Assembly (NCBI GenBank): GCA_030535475.1
Contig: JAUNRT010000003.1
Location: 1 to 62,888, forward strand
Direction: 5' to 3'
DNA from: Weeksellaceae bacterium
GTDB taxonomy: Bacteria; Bacteroidota; Bacteroidia; Flavobacteriales; Weeksellaceae
Length of the DNA stretch: 62,888 nt
Shown piece after piece: positions 3,990-61,839 of this stretch. Both the position numbers and the translations under genes were made by a program. The notes below the pieces were generated by a model. The model was not told the origin of the DNA. It searched no databases and saw nothing but the letters and a program-made list of their open reading frames with translations. How positions within the stretch are numbered: position 1 is the stretch's first letter; each line of letters starts with the position of its first letter.

Positions 3990-4048
3990 AGTTAGGAGAT
4001 TTTTCCGATATGAGTGGCACACGATTTTTAATTGTAAATTACTTTAGT

Positions 4049-4778
4049 GTCAGGCTCTGATAAATTGAGCATAAACAGCAGATAGATGAGATTTTTTTTA
4101 TTTGGGCGGCACCCTTTTCTGGGCAAAATACTTCAGGTTTTATAGAAATCGGCCAAATACCAGGAAACCACCCCAATCTCAAATTTCCATACATGAAATT
4201 GCCCAGAAAAGGGTCGGTGTACGGCTAATACTCCGCGGTCTTTTGGCTACAAAAAATGCTGCAAAATCGGTTTTCCTTAATCTCTCAACCCGCTTTGCAG
4301 CTTTTTTGTAAGAGCCAAAATCCCTTGCGGGGTAACCGCCTACCACCTGCCGCGGCCAACCGCTAAGGCCATTTTGCTTCGCTTGTAACATTTGGATGTT
4401 TTTATTTTGGTCAATTCTAGATGTTTTTTGTGCATCGGCGATTTTGATAGATTTTCTGCCGTTTCTTGGCACAAAAAGCCCTCATTGACCGTGTGTTCCA
4501 AGTGAGCGTTTATGGTATGGCTTGTAGAGACGTTGTCATGTAACGTCTCTACAAGCAGCGTAACGTTTCTAGGTGCATTGAAATGTCTCTAAGTGTTTGC
4601 GGAAAATGGCCTTGTGGGCTGGCCTAGCCCGGATGCGAGCGGCTATCCTTGCAAAATAGACAGCCCTACAGCAATCTGGTGTGGCGGTGGCCGTAACGAT
4701 AGTGGAGGCAGCCGCGACACCGATTGCTGTGGCTGTATATGAGCAAGATAATAGCGGGCAGCCGGAAATAGCTCCTAA
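4049..4778 (-). repeat. Structured two-module repeat element, copy E1 (A end at left, B end at right; inverted relative to E2)
   Basis: About 90 percent identical by eye to the reverse complement of 16492-17262 outside the hairpin apices. A-module is 4101-4355, the central palindrome 4521-4555, and the B-module about 4572-4778. Confidence 0.9.
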
Positions 4779-4793
4779 AAATAGTACTGCTAC

Positions 4794-16313: not shown

Positions 16314-16491
16314 AAAAAATAAATTTTTCTAAAAATGCAGTGAAAGGTACTGAATTTTAACAGAATCATTTGTGTGACATTCATCATAGGGCTGCAATTG
16401 GTGGCGCAAGGTGGTGCAGGCAATAGAGGTCTTCTTGGTATGACTAGAGAAGTGGTAATTTTTCTTGTGGGGTAATATTTTTTATTTTTTT

Positions 16492-17262
16492 TTAGGAGCT
16501 ATTTCCGGCTGCCCGCTATTATCTTGCGCATATCCAGCCACAGCCATCGGTGTCGCGGCTGCCTCCACTATCGTTGCGGCCACCGCCACACCAGATTGCT
16601 GTAGGGCTGTCTATTTTGCAAGGATAGCCGCTCGCATCCGGGCTAGGCCAGCCCGCAAGGCCAATTTCCGCAAATACTAATAGACATTTCAATGCACCTA
16701 CAAAAGTTGCGCTGCTTGTACAGACGTTGCATTGCAACGTCTCAACCGAATGTACAGAGGTTGCATTGCAACATCTTTACAATCCATGCCATAAACGATC
16801 ACTAAGAACACACGGTAACAGACGGTTTTGTGTGCCAAGAAACGGTAGAAAAACAATTAAAATTGCCTTTGTACAAAAAACATCTAGAATTGACCAAAAT
16901 AGAAAAATCCAAATTTTATAAGCGAAGCAAAACGGCCCTTGCTGCGGGCCGCGGCAGGTGGGAGGCGGTTACCCCGCAAGGGATTTTGGCTCTTACAAAA
17001 AAGCTGCAAAGCGGGTTGAGAGATTATGGAAAACCGATTTTGCAGCATTTTTTGTAGCCAAAAGACCGCGGAGTAATAGCCGTACACCGACCCTTTTCTG
17101 GGCATTTTTATGTGTATTGATAGGAAATACTTGCGGATTTGTTTTCAAAAATCCAAATGACAAAACACTACCGAATTTTGCCCAGAAAAGGGTGCCGCCC
17201 AAATAAGAAAAATAAGAAATCTGATGAACTTGTTGTTTAGACTCATCTTATCAGAGCCTGAC
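16492..17262 (+). repeat. Structured two-module repeat element, copy E2 (B end at left, A end at right)
   Basis: B-module is 16492-16675. Two tandem palindromes lie at 16722-16742 and 16756-16776. A central unit follows, then the A-module at 16949-17203. A further 60 bp or so to 17262 is shared with E1 only. Confidence 0.9.
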
Positions 17263-17376
17263 TCTGCCCAAATTTCCAGTTTTCAATCAAAAAAATTGTG
17301 AATAAGAATTTTTCTTAAAAATTTAAGAAAAAGCTTGTTTGTAAAGGATATTTCTATACTTTTAGCAAAAAAATTT

Positions 17377-21200: not shown

Positions 21201-21280
21201 ACATCACATTTCACAGGCGATGGCGCAAGTTTCAAAAAGATTCATCACAAGGCTTTGAGCAGTTTTTCTGCGAATTTTTA

Positions 21281-21475
21281 TTAGGAGCTATTTCCGGCTG
21301 CCCGCTATTATCTTGCGCATATCCAGCCACAGAAATCGGTGTTGCGGCTGCCTTCACTATCGTTGCGGCCACCGCCACACTGGATTTCTGTACGGCTGTC
21401 TATTTTGCAAGGATAGCCGCTCGCATCCGGGCTAGGCCAGCCCTCAAAGGCCATTTTCCAGCGCAGACATACAGT
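21281..21475 (+). repeat. Solo B-module of the structured repeat family
   Basis: TTAGGAGCTATTTCCGGCTGCCCGCTATTATCTTGCGC...CCGGGCTAGGCCAGCCC is collinear with 16492-16675. The long hairpin carries paired substitutions. Confidence 0.9.
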
Positions 21476-34584: not shown

Positions 34585-35586
34585 ATGGACAAGCATAAAA
34601 AGCAGAGAATAGGCGTCATCGGCAGTGGAAGTTTTGGTACAGCCCTCACCAAGATTTTTTGTGAGACCAATGAGCAAGTAAATTGGTGGGTGCGCAGTGA
34701 AGAAGTTAAGGACACCCTCCTCACAGAGCATCGCAACCCGCACTACCTGAGTTCAGTATCATTCCGCCCCAACAAGCTTCAAGTATTCACAGATATCAAC
34801 CAGCTCGTGGAGCACACAGACATCCTTGTCTTTGTCACGCCCTCCATCTACCTGCTAGACTGCCTCAAAGACCTCAACGTCTCGCTACAAGACAAGCTTG
34901 TAGTCACAGCCATCAAAGGTCTCATTCCGCAGCAGTCCAAGATCATAGGAGATTATTTCCATGAAGATCTGGGCATACCCTTGGACAACATTGGCGTCAT
35001 AGCCGGCCCGTGTCATGCAGAAGAAATAGCACTCGAGCGGCTCTCATACCTTACCGTAGCCTTCAAAGACGCACACAAAGCAGAAATCCTTGCCCAACAC
35101 CTGCGTTGCAGGTACATGAACGTCACCTTGAGTGATGATATCTTTGGCACAGAACACTCCGCAGTGCTCAAAAACGTGTATGCCATATCAGCAGGTTTGG
35201 CGCATGGGTTAGGCTATGGAGACAACTTCATAGCAGTTCTGCTCAGCAATGCCATCCGTGAAATGGCGCGCTACATGGACGCCATTTATCCCATACAGCG
35301 AGACGTTAACGAGTCTGTTTACCTTGGTGATTTGCTCGTCACCGGCTACTCCTACTTCAGTCGCAATCGCATGTTTGGCAACATGGTAGGCAAAGGCTAT
35401 ACAGTGAAATCCGCACTTATGGAGATGAACATGGTGCCAGAAGGCTACTACGCCGCAGACGGTATCAAAAAAATCGCTGACGAGCACAACGTGCACCTAC
35501 CCATACTCAATCGCGTACACAAAATCCTTTACCGCGACAAAAACCCCAAAAAGCAATTCCAAAAACTCACTGCCGACCTCAATTAA
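34585..35586 (+). CDS. gpsA: NAD(P)H-dependent glycerol-3-phosphate dehydrogenase
   Basis: RIGVIGSGSFGTAL Rossmann motif and a GpsA-like C-terminal domain; ATG at 34585. Confidence 0.9.
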   Translation: MDKHKKQRIGVIGSGSFGTALTKIFCETNEQVNWWVRSEEVKDTLLTEHRNPHYLSSVSFRPNKLQVFTDINQLVEHTDILVFVTPSIYLLDCLKDLNVSLQDKLVVTAIKGLIPQQSKIIGDYFHEDLGIPLDNIGVIAGPCHAEEIALERLSYLTVAFKDAHKAEILAQHLRCRYMNVTLSDDIFGTEHSAVLKNVYAISAGLAHGLGYGDNFIAVLLSNAIREMARYMDAIYPIQRDVNESVYLGDLLVTGYSYFSRNRMFGNMVGKGYTVKSALMEMNMVPEGYYAADGIKKIADEHNVHLPILNRVHKILYRDKNPKKQFQKLTADLN

Positions 35587-35683
35587 CCCCGTATAAACGC
35601 CAGGCTTTTTCATTTGCAGCATTCATATAAATAACAAGATTACATAGAGGAGCCTAGCAAAGTATAATTATTTTTTTATTTTT

Positions 35684-35863
35684 TTAGGAGCTATTTCCGG
35701 CTGTTGCCTCCAATCTTGTTGGTCAGTGGCAGCAAAAAAATCTCCCTTCAGGCACACTCTCCCGGATGAGCCGGGACCCGGTACCTGCAGGGAGTTTTTT
35801 GCATTGCCACTGCCTGCACAAGGATTTCCGGCACATTCGGGCTAGGCCATACAGCACAAGGCC
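35684..35863 (+). repeat. B-module, subtype 2
   Basis: Conserved 5' block. The closing helix is ATCTTGT/ACAAGGAT (35713-35719 / 35818-35825). A roughly 29-bp hairpin spans 35724-35812, and the 3' block is CGGGCTAGGCC..GGCC. Confidence 0.85.
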
Positions 35864-36106
35864 AAAAAATAGTCAGCACCCATTCCCACAGATCAAAAGC
35901 TACAACCAGCATTCACATACAACCAGCAATCACTTTCAAAGGACAATCAAAATCCCAGAAACACGGTCACTGAGGGTTTTTTGTGCCAAAAATCGCGGGA
36001 AAAACAAACAAAAATTGAAACTGCACAAAAAATGTCTCGAAGTGACGAACTTCAAACTTATTCCTTTGCTTCCTGTGGCTTCTCGACAATTTGGCTTAGG
36101 CAAAAT

Positions 36107-36146
36107 CCCTCAGCCACCGTTTTGTATCGGTCACTGAGGGTTTTTT
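36107..36146 (+). terminator. Intrinsic terminator-like hairpin ending tandem unit 1
   Basis: CCCTCAG-20 nt-CTGAGGG followed by TTTTTT. Confidence 0.7.
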
Positions 36147-36267
36147 GTGCCAGAAGTCGCAGTAAAACCAATGAATCGTCAGTGCACAAAAAACGTCTCG
36201 AAGTGACAAACTTCAAAATTATTGCTTCGCTTTATGTGGCTTCGAGACAATTTTGCTTTGGCAAAAT

Positions 36268-36307
36268 CCCTCAGCCACCGTTTTGCATCGGTCACTGAGG
36301 GTTTTTT
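36268..36307 (+). terminator. Intrinsic terminator-like hairpin ending tandem unit 2
   Basis: CCCTCAG (36268-36274) ... CTGAGGG (36295-36301) followed by T6 (36302-36307). Confidence 0.7.
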
Positions 36308-36544
36308 GTGCCAAAAATCACGGGGAAAACAAACAAAAATTGAAACTGCACAAAAAATGTATCGAAGTGACGAACTTCAAAATTATTCCTTTGCTTCACG
36401 TGGCTTCTAGATAATTTGTCTTAGGCAAAATCCTTCAGCCACCTTTTTCCATGTGAAAGCTTTGAAACTTGAATTTTGCAAATCAGCACCGCTGACTTGC
36501 AAAAAAAAGAGCAATATGAAGGTCTATTTGCACTTGTACAGTGT

Positions 36545-36826
36545 TTAATCTAAGTCAAATTCTCTTCCTTCTAGGAATTTCCCCCATTCTTCTGAAATAG
36601 CTTCTATAAAGGACCACGCGTGCCTATCTTCTCCAAATCCTTTGCGTATTATCGGCTGAATGAGCTCCATGGTTTCTTCCTCTGGATTGTATAAATATTC
36701 ATTCCCTTTGAGTAAATGAATGTTTACATAACAACCTCCATCACTGCCATTGAAAGGCTTTGTGTCAATGTATTTAATATTGCCTAAGTCAAAAGCCTGA
36801 TTTCCGAATAAAAAAATTCTTCCCAT
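36545..36826 (-). CDS. Hypothetical small acidic protein (93 aa) carried inside element E3
   Basis: ATG at 36826 (MGRIFLFGNQAFDLG...). No recognisable family. The upstream part of the longer track ORF looks non-coding. Confidence 0.45.
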   Translation of the reverse strand: MGRIFLFGNQAFDLGNIKYIDTKPFNGSDGGCYVNIHLLKGNEYLYNPEEETMELIQPIIRKGFGEDRHAWSFIEAISEEWGKFLEGREFDLD

Positions 36827-37038
36827 GATTATTTGATTTAAAAATTTGATCTTTTTTGTGAACTGTTCTGGTATGCTTCTTATGCAACTTTTTGCATAAC
36901 AAAGTAAACTACGGTGTAAAAGTATTGACGTACAACGCCAAAACATGTCGTTGAAAAAAATTCAAAAGCCAAATAATACTTTTTACGCTATACCGGATGA
37001 AATAATGAGAGTTTTAAGCTAGATCTATGTTGCGATGC

Positions 37039-37283
37039 CCGCGGCAGGTGGTAGGCGGCTACCCCGCAAGGTATTTTGGCTCTTGCAAAATGTGAGCGCA
37101 AAGGGGTTGATGCCGCCCAACCGGCAGAAAACCCTTTGCGCCACTATTTTGCAGCCAAAAAACCGCGGAGTAATAGCCGTACAACCGACCCTTTTAATGG
37201 GTTGTAGAAACGCGATAATCGATGTAAATAATGAATACCCGATCCATTGCGTCTCTACAGCACAAAAAAGGGTGCCGCCCAAA
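37039..37283 (+). repeat. A-module of E3
   Basis: Collinear with 16949-17203. It has the CCGCGG...CCGCGG frame, the CC-GCAA-GG hairpin (37064-37071), and covarying helices at 37074-37091/37146-37160 and 37096-37105/37132-37141. Confidence 0.85.
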
Positions 37284-37318
37284 TCATTAAAAAATATTGC
37301 TTGCCTGTGAACGCTGTT

Positions 37319-49859: not shown

Positions 49860-50065
49860 GCTCAGGACCAGGCTATTGGGCTAAATCCTGCTTGCCATAA
49901 TCTACAAAAGCTGCTGCTGCCGGCACACTCTCAGGCTATCGCCGTGACCCGGTACCGGCAGCAGCGCTTTTGTAATAGATTTTGTCTGCGCACGATACCG
50001 CCCATATCCTTGCCTCAACTTGCCTTCGGCAAGTGTTGGGTAGTAATGGAAGCGGGGAAACTTTC
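49860..50065 (+). repeat. Diverged B-like structured module (related to subtype 2)
   Basis: Preceded by a roughly 20-nt T-rich tract. The hairpin at 49899-49980 has the same loop motifs (GGCACACTCTC ... GACCCGGTACC) as 35751-35785, but different, complementary stems. Confidence 0.7.
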
Positions 50066-50135
50066 CTTTGCAAAATCTTAAATAAATTTACCGAATTCAG
50101 TTTGATAAATGCGGATAATGAAGATGTTATAGCAT

Positions 50136-54487: not shown

Positions 54488-54694
54488 AAGTACATTGAAA
54501 TTTGCCGATGAGGCAAAAATGGCCTTTGTGGGCTGGCCTAGCCCGTATGCGAACGGAAATCCTTGCGCGGCAATCTGCCCTACAAACAGTGGGCTGGCAG
54601 GTACTGGAATCCCTTGTGGTGGACGTACCGGCAAGCCCTCTGTTTGTGGCAGATTGCGAGCAAGATTGCAGTGGGCAGCCGGAAATAGCTCCAA
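54488..54694 (-). repeat. Solo B-module, subtype 3, in the lpxD upstream region and in lpxD orientation
   Basis: The reverse complement begins TTGGAGCTATTTCCGGCTGCCC. It has the AATCTTGC/GCAAGGATT closing helix, a roughly 30-bp hairpin, and then ACGGGCTAGGCCAGCCC...GGCC and ATTTCAATG. Confidence 0.85.
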
Positions 54695-54855
54695 AAAATA
54701 ATAAATAGGCTAATCAAGCATGATAAAGTGTTGATTTTTAAAGGATTGATGAGTTTTGTGGAATTTGAATGTGTTTGGAGAAAAATGGCTTGAAGGAATT
54801 GTAAAATCTGTTTAAATTTGTGTTTTCTAATTTTCAACAAAAAAGTAGGAGTTTT

Positions 54856-56494: not shown

Positions 56495-58066
56495 ATGAAA
56501 AGAAGTTTATTTTGTGCCGGTCTGCTATTAGCAGGTTTGGCCTATGGTCAAGTATTTCAAGAAGACTGGGACGGAAATGGTCCTGGTATTGAGGCTTGGA
56601 CTGTAGTGGATGAGAGTGGCAACACTCCTGATGAAGGGGTGAGCTTTATGACGGATGCTTGGACGGTTGTGGACAGACATGGTGCTCAGAATTTTGGAGG
56701 ACCTGCGGGCGATCATGCTGCAGCAAGTACTTCATGGTTTTCACCTCCTGGACAGGCTGATGCATGGCTGATAAGCCCTGAAATAGAGTTGCCTATAGAA
56801 GAGGCATTCTTGATATGGGATGTTAAGGCTCAGGATGCACAATATCCTGATGGGTATGAGCTACGTTTATCACCAACCGGTGGTAGTGCAGTGGAAGATT
56901 TCACAGTGGTATTGTTTTCAATAGCTTCTGAGCAAGCTACTTGGCAAACGAGATCTATTAGCCTTGGAGAGTATAGCGGAACTACTGTGCGTGTGGCATG
57001 GAGAAACAACTCTACAGACCAGTACATACTTCTTGTAGATAATATCCTAGTGCAAGCGCTGGATATGGAAGCGCCAAGCTGTGTGACTCTTTTAGAGCCT
57101 ACAGATGGGTCAACTGTTGATCCTGCAAATGCAGTATTTTCTTGGGAGCCGGCAGAAGGTGATAGCATAGACAATTATACTTTCTACTTAGGAACAAGTA
57201 TAGATGATATGGCAAGTTTAGGTACTACTACCAACACTTCAACTCCACTGAGTGGCCTACAGTTTAGTACTACTTACTACTGGACAGTGATCCCAAGCAA
57301 TTTGGCAGGTGCACCAACTGATTGTGCTATCTATAGCTTCACAACAGAGGAGTCTCCATTGGCACCTTACTGTGGACCGCTTAATTTCACGCTTGTGGAG
57401 CCAATCACGCTTGTGGAGTTTGCAGGGATAAATAATTCTACTTCTGCAGAGGTAGGAGGGGTTCCGGCTCATGGTATTTATCTGGATATGGTAGCCAATG
57501 TAGCGCAGGGTGAAACGTACACCATTATTCTTTCAGGTAATACTGCCGGAAATTATATAAATAGATTTGCAGTGTTCATTGACTGGAATCAAAATGGTGT
57601 CTTGGATGATGCTGGTGAGGTATATGAAGTAACACAGTTGCTAGAAAACTCAACAGGAACTGATGGTGTCACTATATCTCACGAAATCACTGTGCCAGCA
57701 GATGCTGTAATAGGTACTACTAGAATGCGCGTGAAGAAGATATATGGAACTACTGATTTTCTAGATCCATGCGCAGGTACCACATTTGGACACGCTCAAG
57801 ATTATTCTGTTGAGGTAGGTACAATGTCAACTGTTGATACAGAAATGAGAAGAAACAATGTGTATCCAAACCCTACAAGAGATGTACTCAACATATCTGC
57901 TACAGATGTAGCGCAAGTACGTGTGTACAACATGCTTGGACAGCAGATGAGAGTAGATTTCAATGCTCAAACTGTAAACGTAAGCCACTTACCAGCTGGT
58001 AATTACATACTACAGATGGAGAATGAGAATGGTGACTTGCAAAACGTGAAGTTCATCAAGAAATAA
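56495..58066 (+). CDS. T9SS-sorted secreted protein with choice-of-anchor-J-like N-terminal domain and GEVED-like domain (paralog 1)
   Basis: Signal peptide; the QVFQEDWDGNGPG block; PYCGP...FIDWNQNGVLDDAGEVYEV...RMRVKK...AQDYSVEV; and a C-terminal VYPNPTRDVLNI...KFIKK sorting domain. Confidence 0.85.
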   Translation: MKRSLFCAGLLLAGLAYGQVFQEDWDGNGPGIEAWTVVDESGNTPDEGVSFMTDAWTVVDRHGAQNFGGPAGDHAAASTSWFSPPGQADAWLISPEIELPIEEAFLIWDVKAQDAQYPDGYELRLSPTGGSAVEDFTVVLFSIASEQATWQTRSISLGEYSGTTVRVAWRNNSTDQYILLVDNILVQALDMEAPSCVTLLEPTDGSTVDPANAVFSWEPAEGDSIDNYTFYLGTSIDDMASLGTTTNTSTPLSGLQFSTTYYWTVIPSNLAGAPTDCAIYSFTTEESPLAPYCGPLNFTLVEPITLVEFAGINNSTSAEVGGVPAHGIYLDMVANVAQGETYTIILSGNTAGNYINRFAVFIDWNQNGVLDDAGEVYEVTQLLENSTGTDGVTISHEITVPADAVIGTTRMRVKKIYGTTDFLDPCAGTTFGHAQDYSVEVGTMSTVDTEMRRNNVYPNPTRDVLNISATDVAQVRVYNMLGQQMRVDFNAQTVNVSHLPAGNYILQMENENGDLQNVKFIKK

Positions 58067-58098
58067 GTATAAGTGATCTGATCACTGGGTCTTATGAA

Positions 58099-58130
58099 AT
58101 CCCGCAGCCGCAGGCTGCGGGATTTTTTTT
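58099..58130 (+). terminator. Intrinsic terminator after paralog 1
   Basis: ATCCCGCAGCC-gca-GGCTGCGGGAT followed by T8. Confidence 0.85.
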
Positions 58131-58230
58131 ATGAAACAATTTTTCTCGATGAATTGAGTTTTTGCCTTATGCCCTACGGCATTTTGTGTAACTTTATGGC
58201 CAATTGATATTTTTAACACAAATAGTTTTC

Positions 58231-59805
58231 ATGAAGAGATTTTTATTGTTTTCGGTTTTGATTTTTGCCTCACAGGTTTATGGCCAAATTTTTCAGGAAG
58301 ATTGGGACGGTAGTGGTCCTGGAATTGCCGGATGGACCGTGATAGACGTAGATGCCAATACCCCATCAGCTACAGTAGCCTCATATATGACAGATGCTTG
58401 GGTGGTACTAGATCAGGGAGGTACGCCCAACTTAGATGGCCCTGAAGGAAATTTTGTAGCCGTGAGCACATCAGACTACACACCGGCGGGTACTTCAAAT
58501 GACTGGCTGATATCACCCGTCATAGAGCTCCCCACCGGCAACATTTCTGTGTTCTGGAACGCCAGAGCACAAGATCCCAACTATAGAGATGGATATGAAC
58601 TTAGGTTGGCCCCCAATGCCGGCAATAGTCCGGAGGATTTTACTGTTACATTACTTTCGGTAGCAGAAGAAAGCAGCACTTGGGCCAACAGAAGTGCGTC
58701 ACTCAATGAATATGTAGGAACCAGCGTGAGACTGGCTTGGGTGAACAATTCTACTGACAAGTTTCTTCTACTGATAGACAATATTTTGGTGGATGTAGTA
58801 GAGAATGTAGCTCCGTCATGTTCTGCTCTATTGTCTCCTGCTGATGAAGCTGTAGGAGTGGACCCACAAGGGATTGTGCTCTCTTGGGAAGCTTCTGATT
58901 CAGCTACGAGTTATCAATTGTTTGTGGGCAGCTCACCGAGCACTTTAAACTATATTGATAGCGTAACCAATACCTCTACACCGCTTTTTGGTTTGCAATA
59001 TTCTACAACATATTATTGGTCTATAGTCCCATCCAATGACACGGCCGATGCGCAGGCTTGTGCGGTGTTTTCTTTCACCACCATGGATTCGCCGTTTGCT
59101 CCTTATTGCGGTCCTCTCGTGTATTATTTGACTACAGAACCTATAACTTTAGTAGATTTTGCGGGAATAAATAATGCTACATCAGCAGAAGGTGCTGAGA
59201 GCGCAGGCCATATGGATTTCACAGATCAAGTAGGACATGTGGTGCCGGGTGAAACATACACTATCACCCTACAAGGATATACGGGTGGCAACTATGCCAA
59301 TCGCTTTGTGATCTTCATAGACTGGAACCAGAATGGTGTGCTAGATGATGCTGGCGAGGTATATGAGGTGACACAAGAATTGGTGAACTCTACAGGAACA
59401 GATGGACAGCAAGTAACTCATGAGATTACAGTACCTGCCAACGCATTAATCGGTGAAACACGCATGCGCGTGAAAAAACAATTTGGGCCCAATTATTACA
59501 CAGACCCTTGTATGGCGCCCGGTTTTGGACAAGCCGCAGACTATACACTACAAGTAGGTAGCTTGAGTGTAGGAGAGCAAGAATTAGCCGCTATGAAAAT
59601 CTATCCAAATCCAGTGAAAGATGTTTTGCATATACAAGGAGATGCCTGGGTAGAGGCCAAAATTTATAATTATTTAGGCCAACAAATTCATGCTAAAATT
59701 CAAGGCGGTACAGTACAAGTATCGCACCTGTCACCGGGGAATTATGTACTGCAATTGCAGCAAAGCAATGGTGAAATTCGATCGTTTAAATTCATCAAGA
59801 GATAA
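58231..59805 (+). CDS. T9SS-sorted choice-of-anchor-J/GEVED-like protein (paralog 2)
   Basis: Same architecture as 56495-58066. ATG at 58231 (MKRFLLFSVLIF). Confidence 0.85.
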   Translation: MKRFLLFSVLIFASQVYGQIFQEDWDGSGPGIAGWTVIDVDANTPSATVASYMTDAWVVLDQGGTPNLDGPEGNFVAVSTSDYTPAGTSNDWLISPVIELPTGNISVFWNARAQDPNYRDGYELRLAPNAGNSPEDFTVTLLSVAEESSTWANRSASLNEYVGTSVRLAWVNNSTDKFLLLIDNILVDVVENVAPSCSALLSPADEAVGVDPQGIVLSWEASDSATSYQLFVGSSPSTLNYIDSVTNTSTPLFGLQYSTTYYWSIVPSNDTADAQACAVFSFTTMDSPFAPYCGPLVYYLTTEPITLVDFAGINNATSAEGAESAGHMDFTDQVGHVVPGETYTITLQGYTGGNYANRFVIFIDWNQNGVLDDAGEVYEVTQELVNSTGTDGQQVTHEITVPANALIGETRMRVKKQFGPNYYTDPCMAPGFGQAADYTLQVGSLSVGEQELAAMKIYPNPVKDVLHIQGDAWVEAKIYNYLGQQIHAKIQGGTVQVSHLSPGNYVLQLQQSNGEIRSFKFIKR

Positions 59806-59840
59806 GAATTTCAAGCGCTAAAACAGTATTCGTTTAGAAA

Positions 59841-59872
59841 AATTCCGGGATGTGAAAATTCCGGAATTTTTT
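59841..59872 (+). terminator. Intrinsic terminator after paralog 2
   Basis: AATTCCGG-loop-CCGGAATT followed by a T run. Confidence 0.7.
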
Positions 59873-59978
59873 ATTTCGCAATTCTCAAATGTGCAACATA
59901 AGCCGCTTTTATGGCTCAAAGTTTTTGAAAAATAGCTATTTTTAGCGCTACAACAAATTACTTTAATAAAAAAATAGT

Positions 59979-61562
59979 ATGAAAAGATTTTTATTCTGTT
60001 CGGGTTTGCTGCTTGCATCACTAGCCTATGGACAGGTGTTTCAAGAAGATTGGGACGGAAATGGACCGGGAATAGAAGCTTGGACCGTGATTGATGTAGA
60101 TGGCAACACGCCGGCACCCGTAGTTTCCGTGGTGTCTGACGCTTGGGTGGTAATAGACAGAGGTAATCCAGATTTCTATGTAGGTGGACCAGCGGGCAAC
60201 CATGCCGCAGTGAGCACTTCTTGGTATGCACCACCCGGCACCTCAGATGACTGGTTGATCACCCCACTCATAGAGCTGCCAGAACATGCAGTGCAAGTAA
60301 AATGGGAAGCAAAAGCGCAGGATGGCAACTTCAGAGACGGGTATGAACTCAGATTAGCACCCAATGGTGGCAATACCGTAGAAGATTTCACCGTGCTATT
60401 GACAAGCATAGACGCAGAAAACGTGATTTGGACTACACGCATCATTTCTCTAGAAGAGTATGCCGGTACAAGCGTGCGCATAGCTTGGCGTAACAATTCT
60501 ACCGATGACAACCTGCTGCTAGTAGATAACATAGTGGTGGACACATTACAAGTACAAACCCCACCGGCATGCGTCACATTATTGACCCCGCAAGATGGCG
60601 TAGAAGATATTGCCAGCAATGACACATTAGTGTTCACTTGGCAACCCGCAGAAGGAGAAGAGGTAGATTTTTACACCTTCAGCATTGGCACCACACCAGA
60701 GGCCAACCTATTGTCAGACGCCACCACTGACACTAGCATCAGCATTTCTGGTTTGGCTCCGGGTACAGTATATTACTGGACAGTTACTGCTCACAACGCC
60801 TCTGGTGAGTCTCAAGATTGTGAGGTATTCTCATTCCGCACCATAGGCAGCGACGTGTCGCCATATTGCGGGCCCATATTTTTCCACAACGTAGAGCCCA
60901 TCACTTATGTAGATTTTGCAGGCATCAACAACACCACGTCCGCCTCCATGGATTCATCACCTCATGAGGCATTTCTAGACCAAGTGGCGCAAGTAGTACC
61001 CGGCGAAATGTACACCATTACCTTGGGTGGATTTACAGACGGGCCATATTCCAACAAGTTTGCAGTTTTTATAGACTGGAACCAAAACGGAATCTTGGAT
61101 GATGCCGGAGAAGTGTATGAGGTAGCAGATCTGCTCACTAACTCCACAGGTGAGGATGGAGTGCACATTACCCACACTATTGCAGTACCATTAGATGCAT
61201 TGCCGGGCGAAACGCGCATGCGCATCAAGAAAATCTACCACACACATTCAGGTCTTTTAGACCCGTGTGAGCAATCAGGTTGGGGTCAAGCAGAAGACTA
61301 TACAGTCAACGTGGGAACACTTTCCACTATAGATGTAGCAGCGAATAGCCTCATTGTTTATCCAAATCCGGCCACAGATGTGCTGAATGTCAAAGGATTA
61401 GAGATATCAAAAGCCACAGTATTCAATACCGCCGGGCAGCAAATTGCTGTACAAGCCACACGTGAGCAGGTAGTAGTAAATCACTTGTTGCCAGGAGTTT
61501 ACATCCTTCAAATTACAGATGCAGACGGGAAATTGCACACAGTGAAATTCATCAAGAAATAA
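59979..61562 (+). CDS. T9SS-sorted choice-of-anchor-J/GEVED-like protein (paralog 3)
   Basis: Same architecture. Its N-terminus is nearly identical to paralog 1 (MKRFLFCSGLLLASLAYGQVFQEDWDGNGPGIEAWTV). Confidence 0.85.
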   Translation: MKRFLFCSGLLLASLAYGQVFQEDWDGNGPGIEAWTVIDVDGNTPAPVVSVVSDAWVVIDRGNPDFYVGGPAGNHAAVSTSWYAPPGTSDDWLITPLIELPEHAVQVKWEAKAQDGNFRDGYELRLAPNGGNTVEDFTVLLTSIDAENVIWTTRIISLEEYAGTSVRIAWRNNSTDDNLLLVDNIVVDTLQVQTPPACVTLLTPQDGVEDIASNDTLVFTWQPAEGEEVDFYTFSIGTTPEANLLSDATTDTSISISGLAPGTVYYWTVTAHNASGESQDCEVFSFRTIGSDVSPYCGPIFFHNVEPITYVDFAGINNTTSASMDSSPHEAFLDQVAQVVPGEMYTITLGGFTDGPYSNKFAVFIDWNQNGILDDAGEVYEVADLLTNSTGEDGVHITHTIAVPLDALPGETRMRIKKIYHTHSGLLDPCEQSGWGQAEDYTVNVGTLSTIDVAANSLIVYPNPATDVLNVKGLEISKATVFNTAGQQIAVQATREQVVVNHLLPGVYILQITDADGKLHTVKFIKK

Positions 61563-61598
61563 ATGTCATAGCCTTTCTTGAAAGATAGAGAATTATCC

Positions 61599-61638
61599 AT
61601 TCTCCCTGTGATCATAGATTGCAGGGAGAATTTTTTTT
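61599..61638 (+). terminator. Intrinsic terminator after paralog 3
   Basis: ATTCTCCCTG-loop-CAGGGAGAAT followed by T8. Confidence 0.8.
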
Positions 61639-61639
61639 A

Positions 61640-61667
61640 TTTGGGCGGCACCCTTTTCCGGGCAATT
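61640..61667 (+). repeat. Isolated A-end stub of the structured repeat family
   Basis: TTTGGGCGGCACCCTTTTCCGGGCAA matches the outer 28 nt of the A-module (4101, 17203rc, 37283rc), but no partner arm follows. Confidence 0.7.
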
Positions 61668-61839
61668 CACGGAATAGCTGTTTTATTGCGGTTTTTGAGA
61701 AGAAAACCGCCAGATTTCCCAAAGTCTCTATAATTTAAATCCGTTACTATTATTGACTAAAATGCTCAAATCATCATCTTTAACGCTTTTTTCCATAACA
61801 AACGGCAGGATCCAATGAGGGTGGAGAGGTGAAAAAATA

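Follow-up and report, generated by a model that had tools for sequence, protein, structure and literature searches.

What is the repeat-rich interval at positions 35684–37283 of contig JAUNRT010000003.1 from a Weeksellaceae bacterium (GenBank assembly GCA_030535475.1): an array of small-RNA genes, a transcription-insulating cassette, or an element that carries cargo? All three suggestions were made in the first-pass annotation of this DNA, which called the interval E3 and described it as an expanded relative of two other elements, E1 and E2. We analysed E3 in the context of the whole 62,888-nt stretch, further referred to as the window. With somewhat better than even confidence, we read it as a member of a lineage-specific modular palindromic intergenic repeat, in which a central unit (U) has been tandemly duplicated and which would act as a redundant bidirectional terminator or insulator. 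The building blocks of the family would be a B-module (an expanded hairpin of the Flavo-1 class), small REP-like hairpins, U, and an A-module (a Y-shaped cluster of palindromes of ~250 nt), and E3 would be a locally rearranged copy of this non-coding mosaic family from the genome of an uncultured Weeksellaceae-like Flavobacteriales bacterium.

The centre of E3 is occupied by the following features, where percentile ranks of hairpins are given among all T-run-associated hairpins in the window.

35964–36452, plus strand: tandem array of 3.0 units of 161–164 bp (Tandem Repeats Finder, TRF: period 161, 82% matches, score 733)
36107–36146, plus strand: hairpin at the junction of units 1 and 2, followed by T6 (dG −22 kcal/mol, z −6.2, top 2.6%)
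36268–36307, plus strand: hairpin at the junction of units 2 and 3, followed by T6 (dG −18.9 kcal/mol, z −4.2, top 1.4%)
36188–36249, minus strand: within-unit hairpin with arms GTCTCGAAG and CTTCGAGAC, then T6; strongest in unit 2

TRF finds one array only, at 35964–36452. Its units span 35982–36145, 36146–36306 and 36307 to ~36452, and the unit starts given by the first-pass annotation are exact, with TGTGCC at 35982, 36146 and 36307. Units 1 and 3 are 93% identical, and unit 2 is 81–84% identical to either by gapped blastn; the range for unit 2 widens to 68–84% when the window repeat search is included. The 22-nt core of the unit, ACAAAAAAYRTMTMGAAKTGAC, occurs five times in the window versus zero expected: once in E1 (4410–4431, minus strand), once in E2 (16873–16894) and three times in E3. 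The copy number of U is one in E1, one in E2 and three in E3. The proposal that the single central unit of E1 and E2 is tripled in E3 holds for the first ~100 nt of each unit and fails for the last ~65 nt, which, including the 5' half-hairpin, are E3-specific. Within these ~65 nt the 11-nt block AAGCGAAGCAA has the opposite orientation to its counterpart in the E1/E2 linker (p<0.002, shuffling). No second copy of E3-type units was found in the window.

As explanations of the array, an assembly artefact and a chance similarity are both extremely improbable. The contig does come from a metagenome-assembled genome (MAG), and independent Logan short-read contigs terminate in the repeats on both sides of E3: contig L001 stops 114 nt past the gpsA gene (window ~35700), within the first ~36 nt of the B-module, and contig L074 stops at window ~37154, in the conserved core of the A-module. 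These ends indicate that the B and A sequences are repeated genome-wide. Against an artefact, the interior of E3 is unique within the window, the motif counts are far above chance, and the units differ by 7–17%, so that they are separable by reads and do not represent a collapsed or inflated perfect repeat.

According to the first-pass annotation, each unit ends in CCCTCAG-20nt-CTGAGGG plus T6. This is true of two unit ends and not of unit 3. The pattern CCCTCAG-N20-CTGAGGG followed by T5–6 is present exactly twice in the window (36107–36145 and 36268–36306), with zero expected. The hairpin ahead of unit 1 (fold of 35935–35985) is degenerate (z −0.7), and unit 3 stops inside the 5' half-hairpin, without the partner arm. 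A complete hairpin is thus present only where two units abut, because the unit is bounded by the inverted repeats CGGTCACTGAGGG...CCCTCAGCCACCG. In the proposed history of the array, a unit so bounded underwent two rounds of tandem duplication, with unequal recombination or slippage as the probable mechanism, and each unit-unit junction would have brought two inverted repeats together into a strong hairpin with T6.

The minus strand of the units is predicted to form terminator-like hairpins as well. The free energy of the within-unit hairpin is −17.9 kcal/mol in unit 2 (top 4.1%), −10.4 in unit 1 and −9.3 in unit 3, the weaker equivalents having their T-runs at 36032 (unit 1) and 36357 (unit 3). 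The conserved unit core doubles as the 3' arm and T6 of this hairpin. In total, T-runs following strong hairpins are located at 35795, 36141 and 36302 on the plus strand and at 35740 and 36193 on the minus strand, where weaker sites are present in addition. The first member of each series belongs to a hairpin nested in the B-module, described below.

E3 is placed between convergent genes, gpsA on the plus strand and genes for proteins of 93 and 280 amino acids (aa) on the minus strand. The gpsA gene ends at 35586 and has no terminator of its own ahead of the E3 repeat. A GC-rich hairpin with a U-tract and a same-strand gene upstream is found for gpsA at 35741–35800, 36107–36146 and 36268–36307, and for the 280-aa and 93-aa genes at 36194–36249 and 35741–35794 on the minus strand; among unit ends it is found at two of the three only. 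Five of the seven module sites in the window lie between convergent genes. The earlier suggestion of a transcription-insulating cassette fits both the strong hairpin and T-run sites predicted on the two strands and the convergent genes. The minus-strand hairpins with T6 in the units, together with the nested bidirectional hairpin of B, would provide sites in both directions, and the region is most plausibly a set of redundant bidirectional Rho-independent terminators and an insulator protecting 3'-ends between convergent genes. Such a role may have arisen as a side effect of repeat expansion, selfish or recombinational, or have been co-opted from it.

The other suggestion of the first-pass annotation, that the units are small-RNA genes, each with its own promoter and ending in a hairpin with T6, is not supported, and we consider it decidedly improbable. 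Two canonical terminators spaced one unit apart and the 22-nt core kept in all five unit copies are what such an array would have. However, no TTG-N17-21-TAnnTTTG promoter consensus with at most one mismatch was found by a consensus scan in 35964–36452 on either strand (the window average is 1.25 sites per kb per strand), and a sigma-70-type scan likewise gave none in the units. The unit bodies fold on the plus strand no better than shuffled sequences (z −0.7, −1.5 and −0.9 in units 1, 2 and 3), and only the junction hairpins are significant. One unit of three has no terminator, and the unit hairpins of E1 and E2 are weak or degenerate; the site in E2 is degenerate, as had been noted. The conserved core also has a place in the minus-strand hairpin. 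The units, as well as the A-module, were tried as members of a known RNA family, and neither has an Rfam match even with the E limit raised to 10 and the filters relaxed. The E3 units are probably not small-RNA genes.

The modular organization of the family is seen from the other copies. E1 (4091–4786, inverted) and E2 (16473–17213), ~700 and ~740 bp long and separated by 12 kb, are 82–84% identical over ~740 nt. The B-end is common to E3 and E2 (35665–35718 vs 16473–16526, 80% identical; repeat family D6), and so are three blocks of the A-module at 37039–37090 (92%), 37147–37194 (85%) and 37260–37292 (85%). All four blocks (families D6, D10, D11 and D15) follow in the same order and polarity. 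The claim that E3 shares termini and polarity with E2 was retained as regards the order and polarity of blocks; the termini given there were drawn too narrowly. Homology between E1 and E2 spans 4046–4781 vs 17265–16489, that is, at least ~50 nt past the A-end. This extension (4046–4090 and 17214–17265) lies beyond the GCCGCCCAAAT "A-end", includes TTATCAGAGCCTGAC and is absent from E3. Partial copies are represented by solo B-modules at 21262–21457 and 54516–54705 and by a truncated solo A-end at 61630–61720; a canonical terminator at 61598–61638 abuts the latter.

Apart from U, the family has a second sub-module with variable copy number, the REP-like perfect palindrome GTAGAGACGTT..AACGTCTCTAC. 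It is present once in E1 (4520–4556), in the form GTAGAGACGTT-ACATGAC-AACGTCTCTAC, and twice in tandem in E2 (16711–16787), where the copies are GTAC-tagged.

The part of E3 preceding the array consists of the following features.

35665–35683, plus strand: T-rich leader ahead of the B-module, common to E2 and partly to the solo B at 21262
35684–35870, minus strand: B-module, a long nested hairpin with a Flavo-1-like outer core and a distal stem expanded by ~90 nt
35734–35800, unstranded: nested sub-module in the distal stem of the E3 B-module, consisting of an A7 run, a 54-nt hairpin (35741–35794) and T6
35871–35963, plus strand: linker from B to the array, with a 17-nt repeat in 1.9 copies at 35901–35933 (TRF) and a degenerate half-hairpin directly ahead of unit 1

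In a permissive Rfam scan the B-module of E3 matches Flavo-1 (RF01705) at 35690–35847 on the minus strand, over the full model (positions 1–76), with 25.1 bits. The four other copies score 32.1–35.4 bits, at 4622–4772 (plus), 16498–16648 (minus), 21287–21437 (minus) and 54536–54689 (plus). All five align to model positions 1–76 with posterior probabilities near 1, and none reaches the gathering score of 42; the shortfall is due to an insertion of ~90 nt in the terminal stem, where the model expects ~15 nt. The taxon and copy number agree with Flavo-1: the family is found in Flavobacteriia, and here there are five copies in 63 kb and at least two more on other contigs of the MAG. The Rfam orientation of B is the strand opposite to the B-to-A direction used in the first-pass annotation.

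On both strands, no T-run-associated hairpin of the window is stronger than the one nested in the distal stem of B (dG −28.7 kcal/mol on the plus strand, top 0.4%; −33.8 kcal/mol on the minus strand, top 0.2%), which resembles an intrinsic terminator for both directions. The motif in its loop, GGCACACTCTC...GACCCGGTACC, is found again at 49917–49961 (repeat family D12), within a structured intergenic palindrome (49860–50080) located between a convergent 174-aa gene and sodA and having A and T runs on the flanks of the core. A third copy of the GGCACACTCTC-hairpin-GACCCGGTACC core is known only as a spurious open reading frame (ORF), P0017.

Several other properties of the Flavo-1 core were observed. 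Both arms (e.g. in 4622–4772) carry the same motif of ~16 nt, GAU-N3-4-AGCGG-N3-4, and the core forms a duplex of pseudo-two-fold symmetry whose purine-rich (G/A) internal loops are on one strand only. It may be a site at which a dimeric protein binds RNA or single-stranded DNA. A reading frame containing ..LGAISGC.. is open in all five copies of the B-module in the window.

The right end of E3 is formed by one feature.

37026–37292, unstranded: A-module of Y shape, with the closing helix GCGGC...GCCGC and two long hairpins (folding, alignment)

The A-module has dG of −118 and −122 kcal/mol on the two strands (z −8.6 and −8.7), and its consensus fold contains 68 pairs, four of them compensatory. 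Conserved blocks of the module are common to E1 and E2, and the distal parts diverge yet stay palindromic. A protein-coding function of the A-module was considered and ruled out: indels are frequent, and the overlapping ORFs in E2 and E3 are in different frames, which makes the module non-coding. In general, the ORFs overlapping modules are not frame-conserved.

These structures raise the question of whether B (Flavo-1) and A are functional structured RNAs, e.g. elements of untranslated regions or parts of one large non-coding RNA. We think this improbable, although Flavo-1 has been catalogued as a covarying RNA motif (Weinberg et al. 2010, PMC2864571) and the folding energies are very low. 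The alignment of the five B copies forms one long hairpin with 56 consensus pairs, of which 22 are changed on both sides and almost none on one side; compensatory stem pairs are seen at alignment columns 43/167 and 48/162. The two-sided changes are, however, largely due to whole distal palindromes being swapped, not to point compensation. Besides, both strands fold almost equally (for B, z −4.7 and −4.8). In all modules G-U comprises only 2–8% of pairs, and there is no consistent strand preference except in B; in essence, the modules consist of Watson-Crick palindromes, and this favours DNA-level repeats over classical structured RNAs. The density of five B-modules in 63 kb is high, and their orientation to neighbouring genes is mixed, the Rfam strand being antisense to the upstream gene in three cases of five. 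In Flavobacterium psychrophilum, Flavo-1 matches occur in either orientation with respect to transcribed regions, and many of them show no transcription (PMC9723704). The exceptional strand preference of B is considered below.

Between the array and the A-module lies an insert, which the first-pass annotation took to be cargo and in which it noted an orphan ORF.

36453–37025, unstranded: single-copy segment of ~570 bp between the array and the A-module (GC content 0.344 vs 0.417 in the window)
36545–36826, minus strand: gene for a 93-aa protein of a conserved small family

The ORF exists, and the segment has no other copy in the window, as stated. The protein is not an orphan: 14 homologues with 55–72% identity were found. 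They are 90–112 aa long, and the family has 30 invariant columns. The protein has no sequence match in Pfam, PHROG or PDB; a match to DpdH in PADLOC is marginal (E 0.005). The AlphaFold model (mean predicted local distance difference test, pLDDT, 85.8) suggests seven strands and a C-terminal helix in a PH-like topology, and the only fold matches are weak PH/PTB-like ones with a template modelling (TM) score of ~0.5. Similarity to the homologue loci is limited to the ORF part of the insert. The neighbourhoods of the homologues contain genes for NADAR, Macro, ADP-ribosyl-glycohydrolase and Tpt1 proteins, and elsewhere GmrSD and Eco57I or KilA-N and helicase genes. The homologues thus sit in variable accessory or defence-type neighbourhoods, and the 93-aa ORF is a real, independently distributed accessory gene. 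It would have been acquired horizontally, as an independent gene now located between the array and the A-module.

In two independent loci (L053 and L056) the homologue directly follows the gene for UzuA of the Uzume system, identified in PADLOC-DB with E of 1e-90 and 4e-92. In these loci (L053:4195–5288 and L056:4164–5281; also in L057) the homologue starts 2 nt downstream of UzuA, and the contigs are unrelated Bacteroidota ones. This arrangement suggests that the family could be an undescribed small partner of UzuA. No UzuA gene adjoins the 93-aa ORF in the window, where the ORF stands alone.

The insert is a part of the case for a mobile element. By this reading, E3 is one non-autonomous element, similar to MITEs (miniature inverted-repeat transposable elements) or derived from an insertion sequence, with B and A as its ends, an internally amplified unit and the 93-aa gene as cargo. 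We regard it as unlikely, though it explains several observations. The order and polarity of B, U and A are constant in E1, E2 and E3, and E1 and E2 evidently represent the same composite unit; multiple dispersed, non-coding copies shorter than ~1 kb are typical of MITEs. The low-GC, single-copy insert carries a gene of the type found in variable accessory and defence islands, and the break in unit 3 falls precisely on the phase boundary of the array, in a hairpin loop. The conserved pseudo-symmetric loops of Flavo-1 would suit a transposase acting on single-stranded DNA. On the other hand, direct reading revealed neither convincing terminal inverted repeats nor target-site duplications, and the window repeat search gave no inverted repeat of the B-end and A-end. 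The left flank is T-rich and the right one A-rich, with no direct duplication, and the limits are fuzzy, since homology passes the quoted ends. Solo B-modules and a solo A-end exist, so the adjacency of B and A in E3 may be due to chance, the prior for a matching orientation being ~1/2. No remnant of the U-to-A linker of E1 and E2 flanks the insert or is found beside the A-module in E3. Neither the insert nor the E3-type units have a second copy in the window, and no transposase or recombinase was found by Pfam among the ~60 window proteins. Because solo modules exist, the linker remnant is missing and neither terminal inverted repeats nor target-site duplications are visible, the insert could with roughly equal probability be ordinary DNA that separates two independent partial copies or cargo within one element.

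A more specific version of this reading would make Flavo-1 the terminal recognition hairpin of composite non-autonomous B-U-A mobile elements, which act at the level of single-stranded DNA, amplify terminator cassettes and capture genes of accessory or defence islands, E3 being a cargo-carrying copy. It is speculative and, in our estimate, has a distinctly low probability.

Several observations weigh against the reading of E3 as a palindromic repeat with a terminator and insulator role. The copies examined, three full and three or four partial ones, are all on one 63-kb contig, and termination and insulation are proposed from sequence features. Two sites, E2 (flanked by fumC and a 228-aa gene) and the solo B at 54.5 kb, are in divergent promoter regions, which means that the family is not confined to 3'-ends of genes. 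The degenerate hairpin in E2 fits context-dependent retention, in a tiny sample. The divergence of 7% between units 1 and 3, and of 17% between these and unit 2, shows that the array is old, and it may be kept by selection for something other than termination. Finally, B is always 4–10 kcal/mol more stable in the Rfam orientation, and the purine-rich internal loops of Flavo-1 are conserved; the former hints at a strand-specific function of RNA or single-stranded DNA, which our favoured reading leaves unexplained, and agrees with B being a structured RNA.

The search for further copies covered several sets of sequences. An exact pattern of the A-core had zero matches in species-representative genomes. 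For 51 Flavobacteriales relatives, the regions around gpsA (1.1 Mb) contain no homologues of the modules by blastn or nhmmer. No Flavo-1 at the gathering score was found in 141 kb of relatives, and a regular expression for the Flavo-1 arms had no match in related loci. Scans of metagenomes and viruses with the invariant termini (a 19-mer and a 17-mer) yielded chance matches only, e.g. in L066, in a coding-like context, and plasmid and phage collections gave no match by distant blastn. In contrast to these nucleotide searches, the translated modules used as a bait retrieved three "hypothetical proteins" of one NCBI Weeksellaceae MAG, encoded on three other contigs (P0016–P0018). MDO5509309.1 and MDO5510862.1 correspond to translated B-modules and MDO5510012.1 to a divergent A-module. 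Judged from these sequences, all three are spurious gene calls from repeats, and their contigs evidently belong to the same genome as the window.

The window itself contains ordinary chromosomal genes, as seen from a scan of ~60 proteins. They include infB, nusA, rimP, mutL, fumC, aroA, gpsA, pdxJ, sodA, lpxD and carotenoid genes. The window proteins form singleton clusters, and the nearest relatives of GpsA, with 66–73% identity, come from Flavobacteriaceae and Weeksellaceae MAGs (species representatives); the MAG of the window thus lacks close relatives in the databases. The switch of gene orientation near 36 kb prompted us to consider E3 as a replication origin; this was rejected, as there is no cluster of DnaA boxes in 34.1–39.4 kb and no clean switch of GC skew. 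Three tandem paralogous genes at 56495–61562 encode proteins of 523–533 aa, all three with GEVED and type IX secretion system (T9SS) C-terminal sorting domains, two with Cleaved_Adhesin and one with fn3. They are the source of the DNA repeat families D1, D3 and D5.

If the favoured reading is true, the orphan Flavo-1 motif, known since 2010 and present in hundreds of copies in Flavobacteriia, is the end of a larger modular repeat and not a free-standing small-RNA gene; for the present, Flavo-1 is a candidate end-module of composite repeats. Flavobacteriales would then join the hosts of BOX, BIME and BrickBuilt as a further group having mosaic repeats whose variable modules create or destroy terminators. 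There are practical consequences as well. E3-type repeats fragment short-read assemblies, both independent contigs ending in them, and yield spurious annotated ORFs such as the three "hypothetical proteins" of the NCBI MAG; they could serve as strain-typing loci. The link of the 93-aa family to UzuA is a small lead for phage-defence research.

Among known systems, Flavo-1 is the closest to a part of E3. The B-module matches all 76 positions of RF01705 and nearly all conserved nucleotides (UAGCC, GAU..AGCGG in both arms, GGAAA), the taxon is Flavobacteriia, there are many copies per genome, and the published alignment also has long distal inserts of variable length. The differences are in the score (25–35 bits vs the gathering score of 42), in the terminator-like hairpin nested in the E3 insertion, and in B being one end of a larger B-U-A composite, undescribed for Flavo-1. 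The resemblance to Uzume concerns the 93-aa gene only: its homologues are immediately downstream of UzuA in two independent loci, whereas the window has no UzuA and other homologue loci have different neighbours.

E3 is not regarded as a sequence member of BOX, SPRITE, BrickBuilt or REP/BIME, and the likeness to each is one of organization. REP/BIME of E. coli and REPINs (PMC2817692, PMC3116915, PMC3733652) are extragenic palindromes arranged in mosaics at 3'-ends of genes, with proposed roles in termination and mRNA stabilisation. Similarly, E1 has a 29-nt palindrome tagged by GTAG...CTAC, and E2 has two GTAC-tagged copies. REPs are 20–40 nt long, in contrast to the multi-helix modules of 180–270 nt in the E3 family, and no RAYT (Y1 transposase) gene is present in the window. 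BrickBuilt of Porphyromonas gingivalis (Klein et al. 2015, PMC4596501) is a multicopy MITE, always intergenic and also from Bacteroidota, with a leader, a tandem repeat and a tail. It affects transcription of its surroundings and acts as a promoter (PMC4596501), whereas the E3 units have no promoter consensus; its repeat is a 23-nt minisatellite, its ends have small inverted repeats, and there is no sequence similarity, as judged only by the lack of matches.

BOX (boxA, boxB in n copies, boxC) and SPRITE are pneumococcal modular intergenic repeats that nest in one another, SPRITE resembling a Rho-independent terminator (Croucher et al. 2011, PMC3049150). They belong to a different phylum, and no sequence relationship is claimed to E3, whose unit is 161 bp long vs 45 bp in BOX and whose family has end modules of 190–270 bp. 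BOX has terminal inverted repeats and target-site duplications, and none are evident in the E3 family. The likeness is an architectural analogy only, consisting in two distinct end modules with an internal module in variable tandem number between them, as is the case here, and in predicted stable stem-loops, enrichment downstream of genes and nesting.

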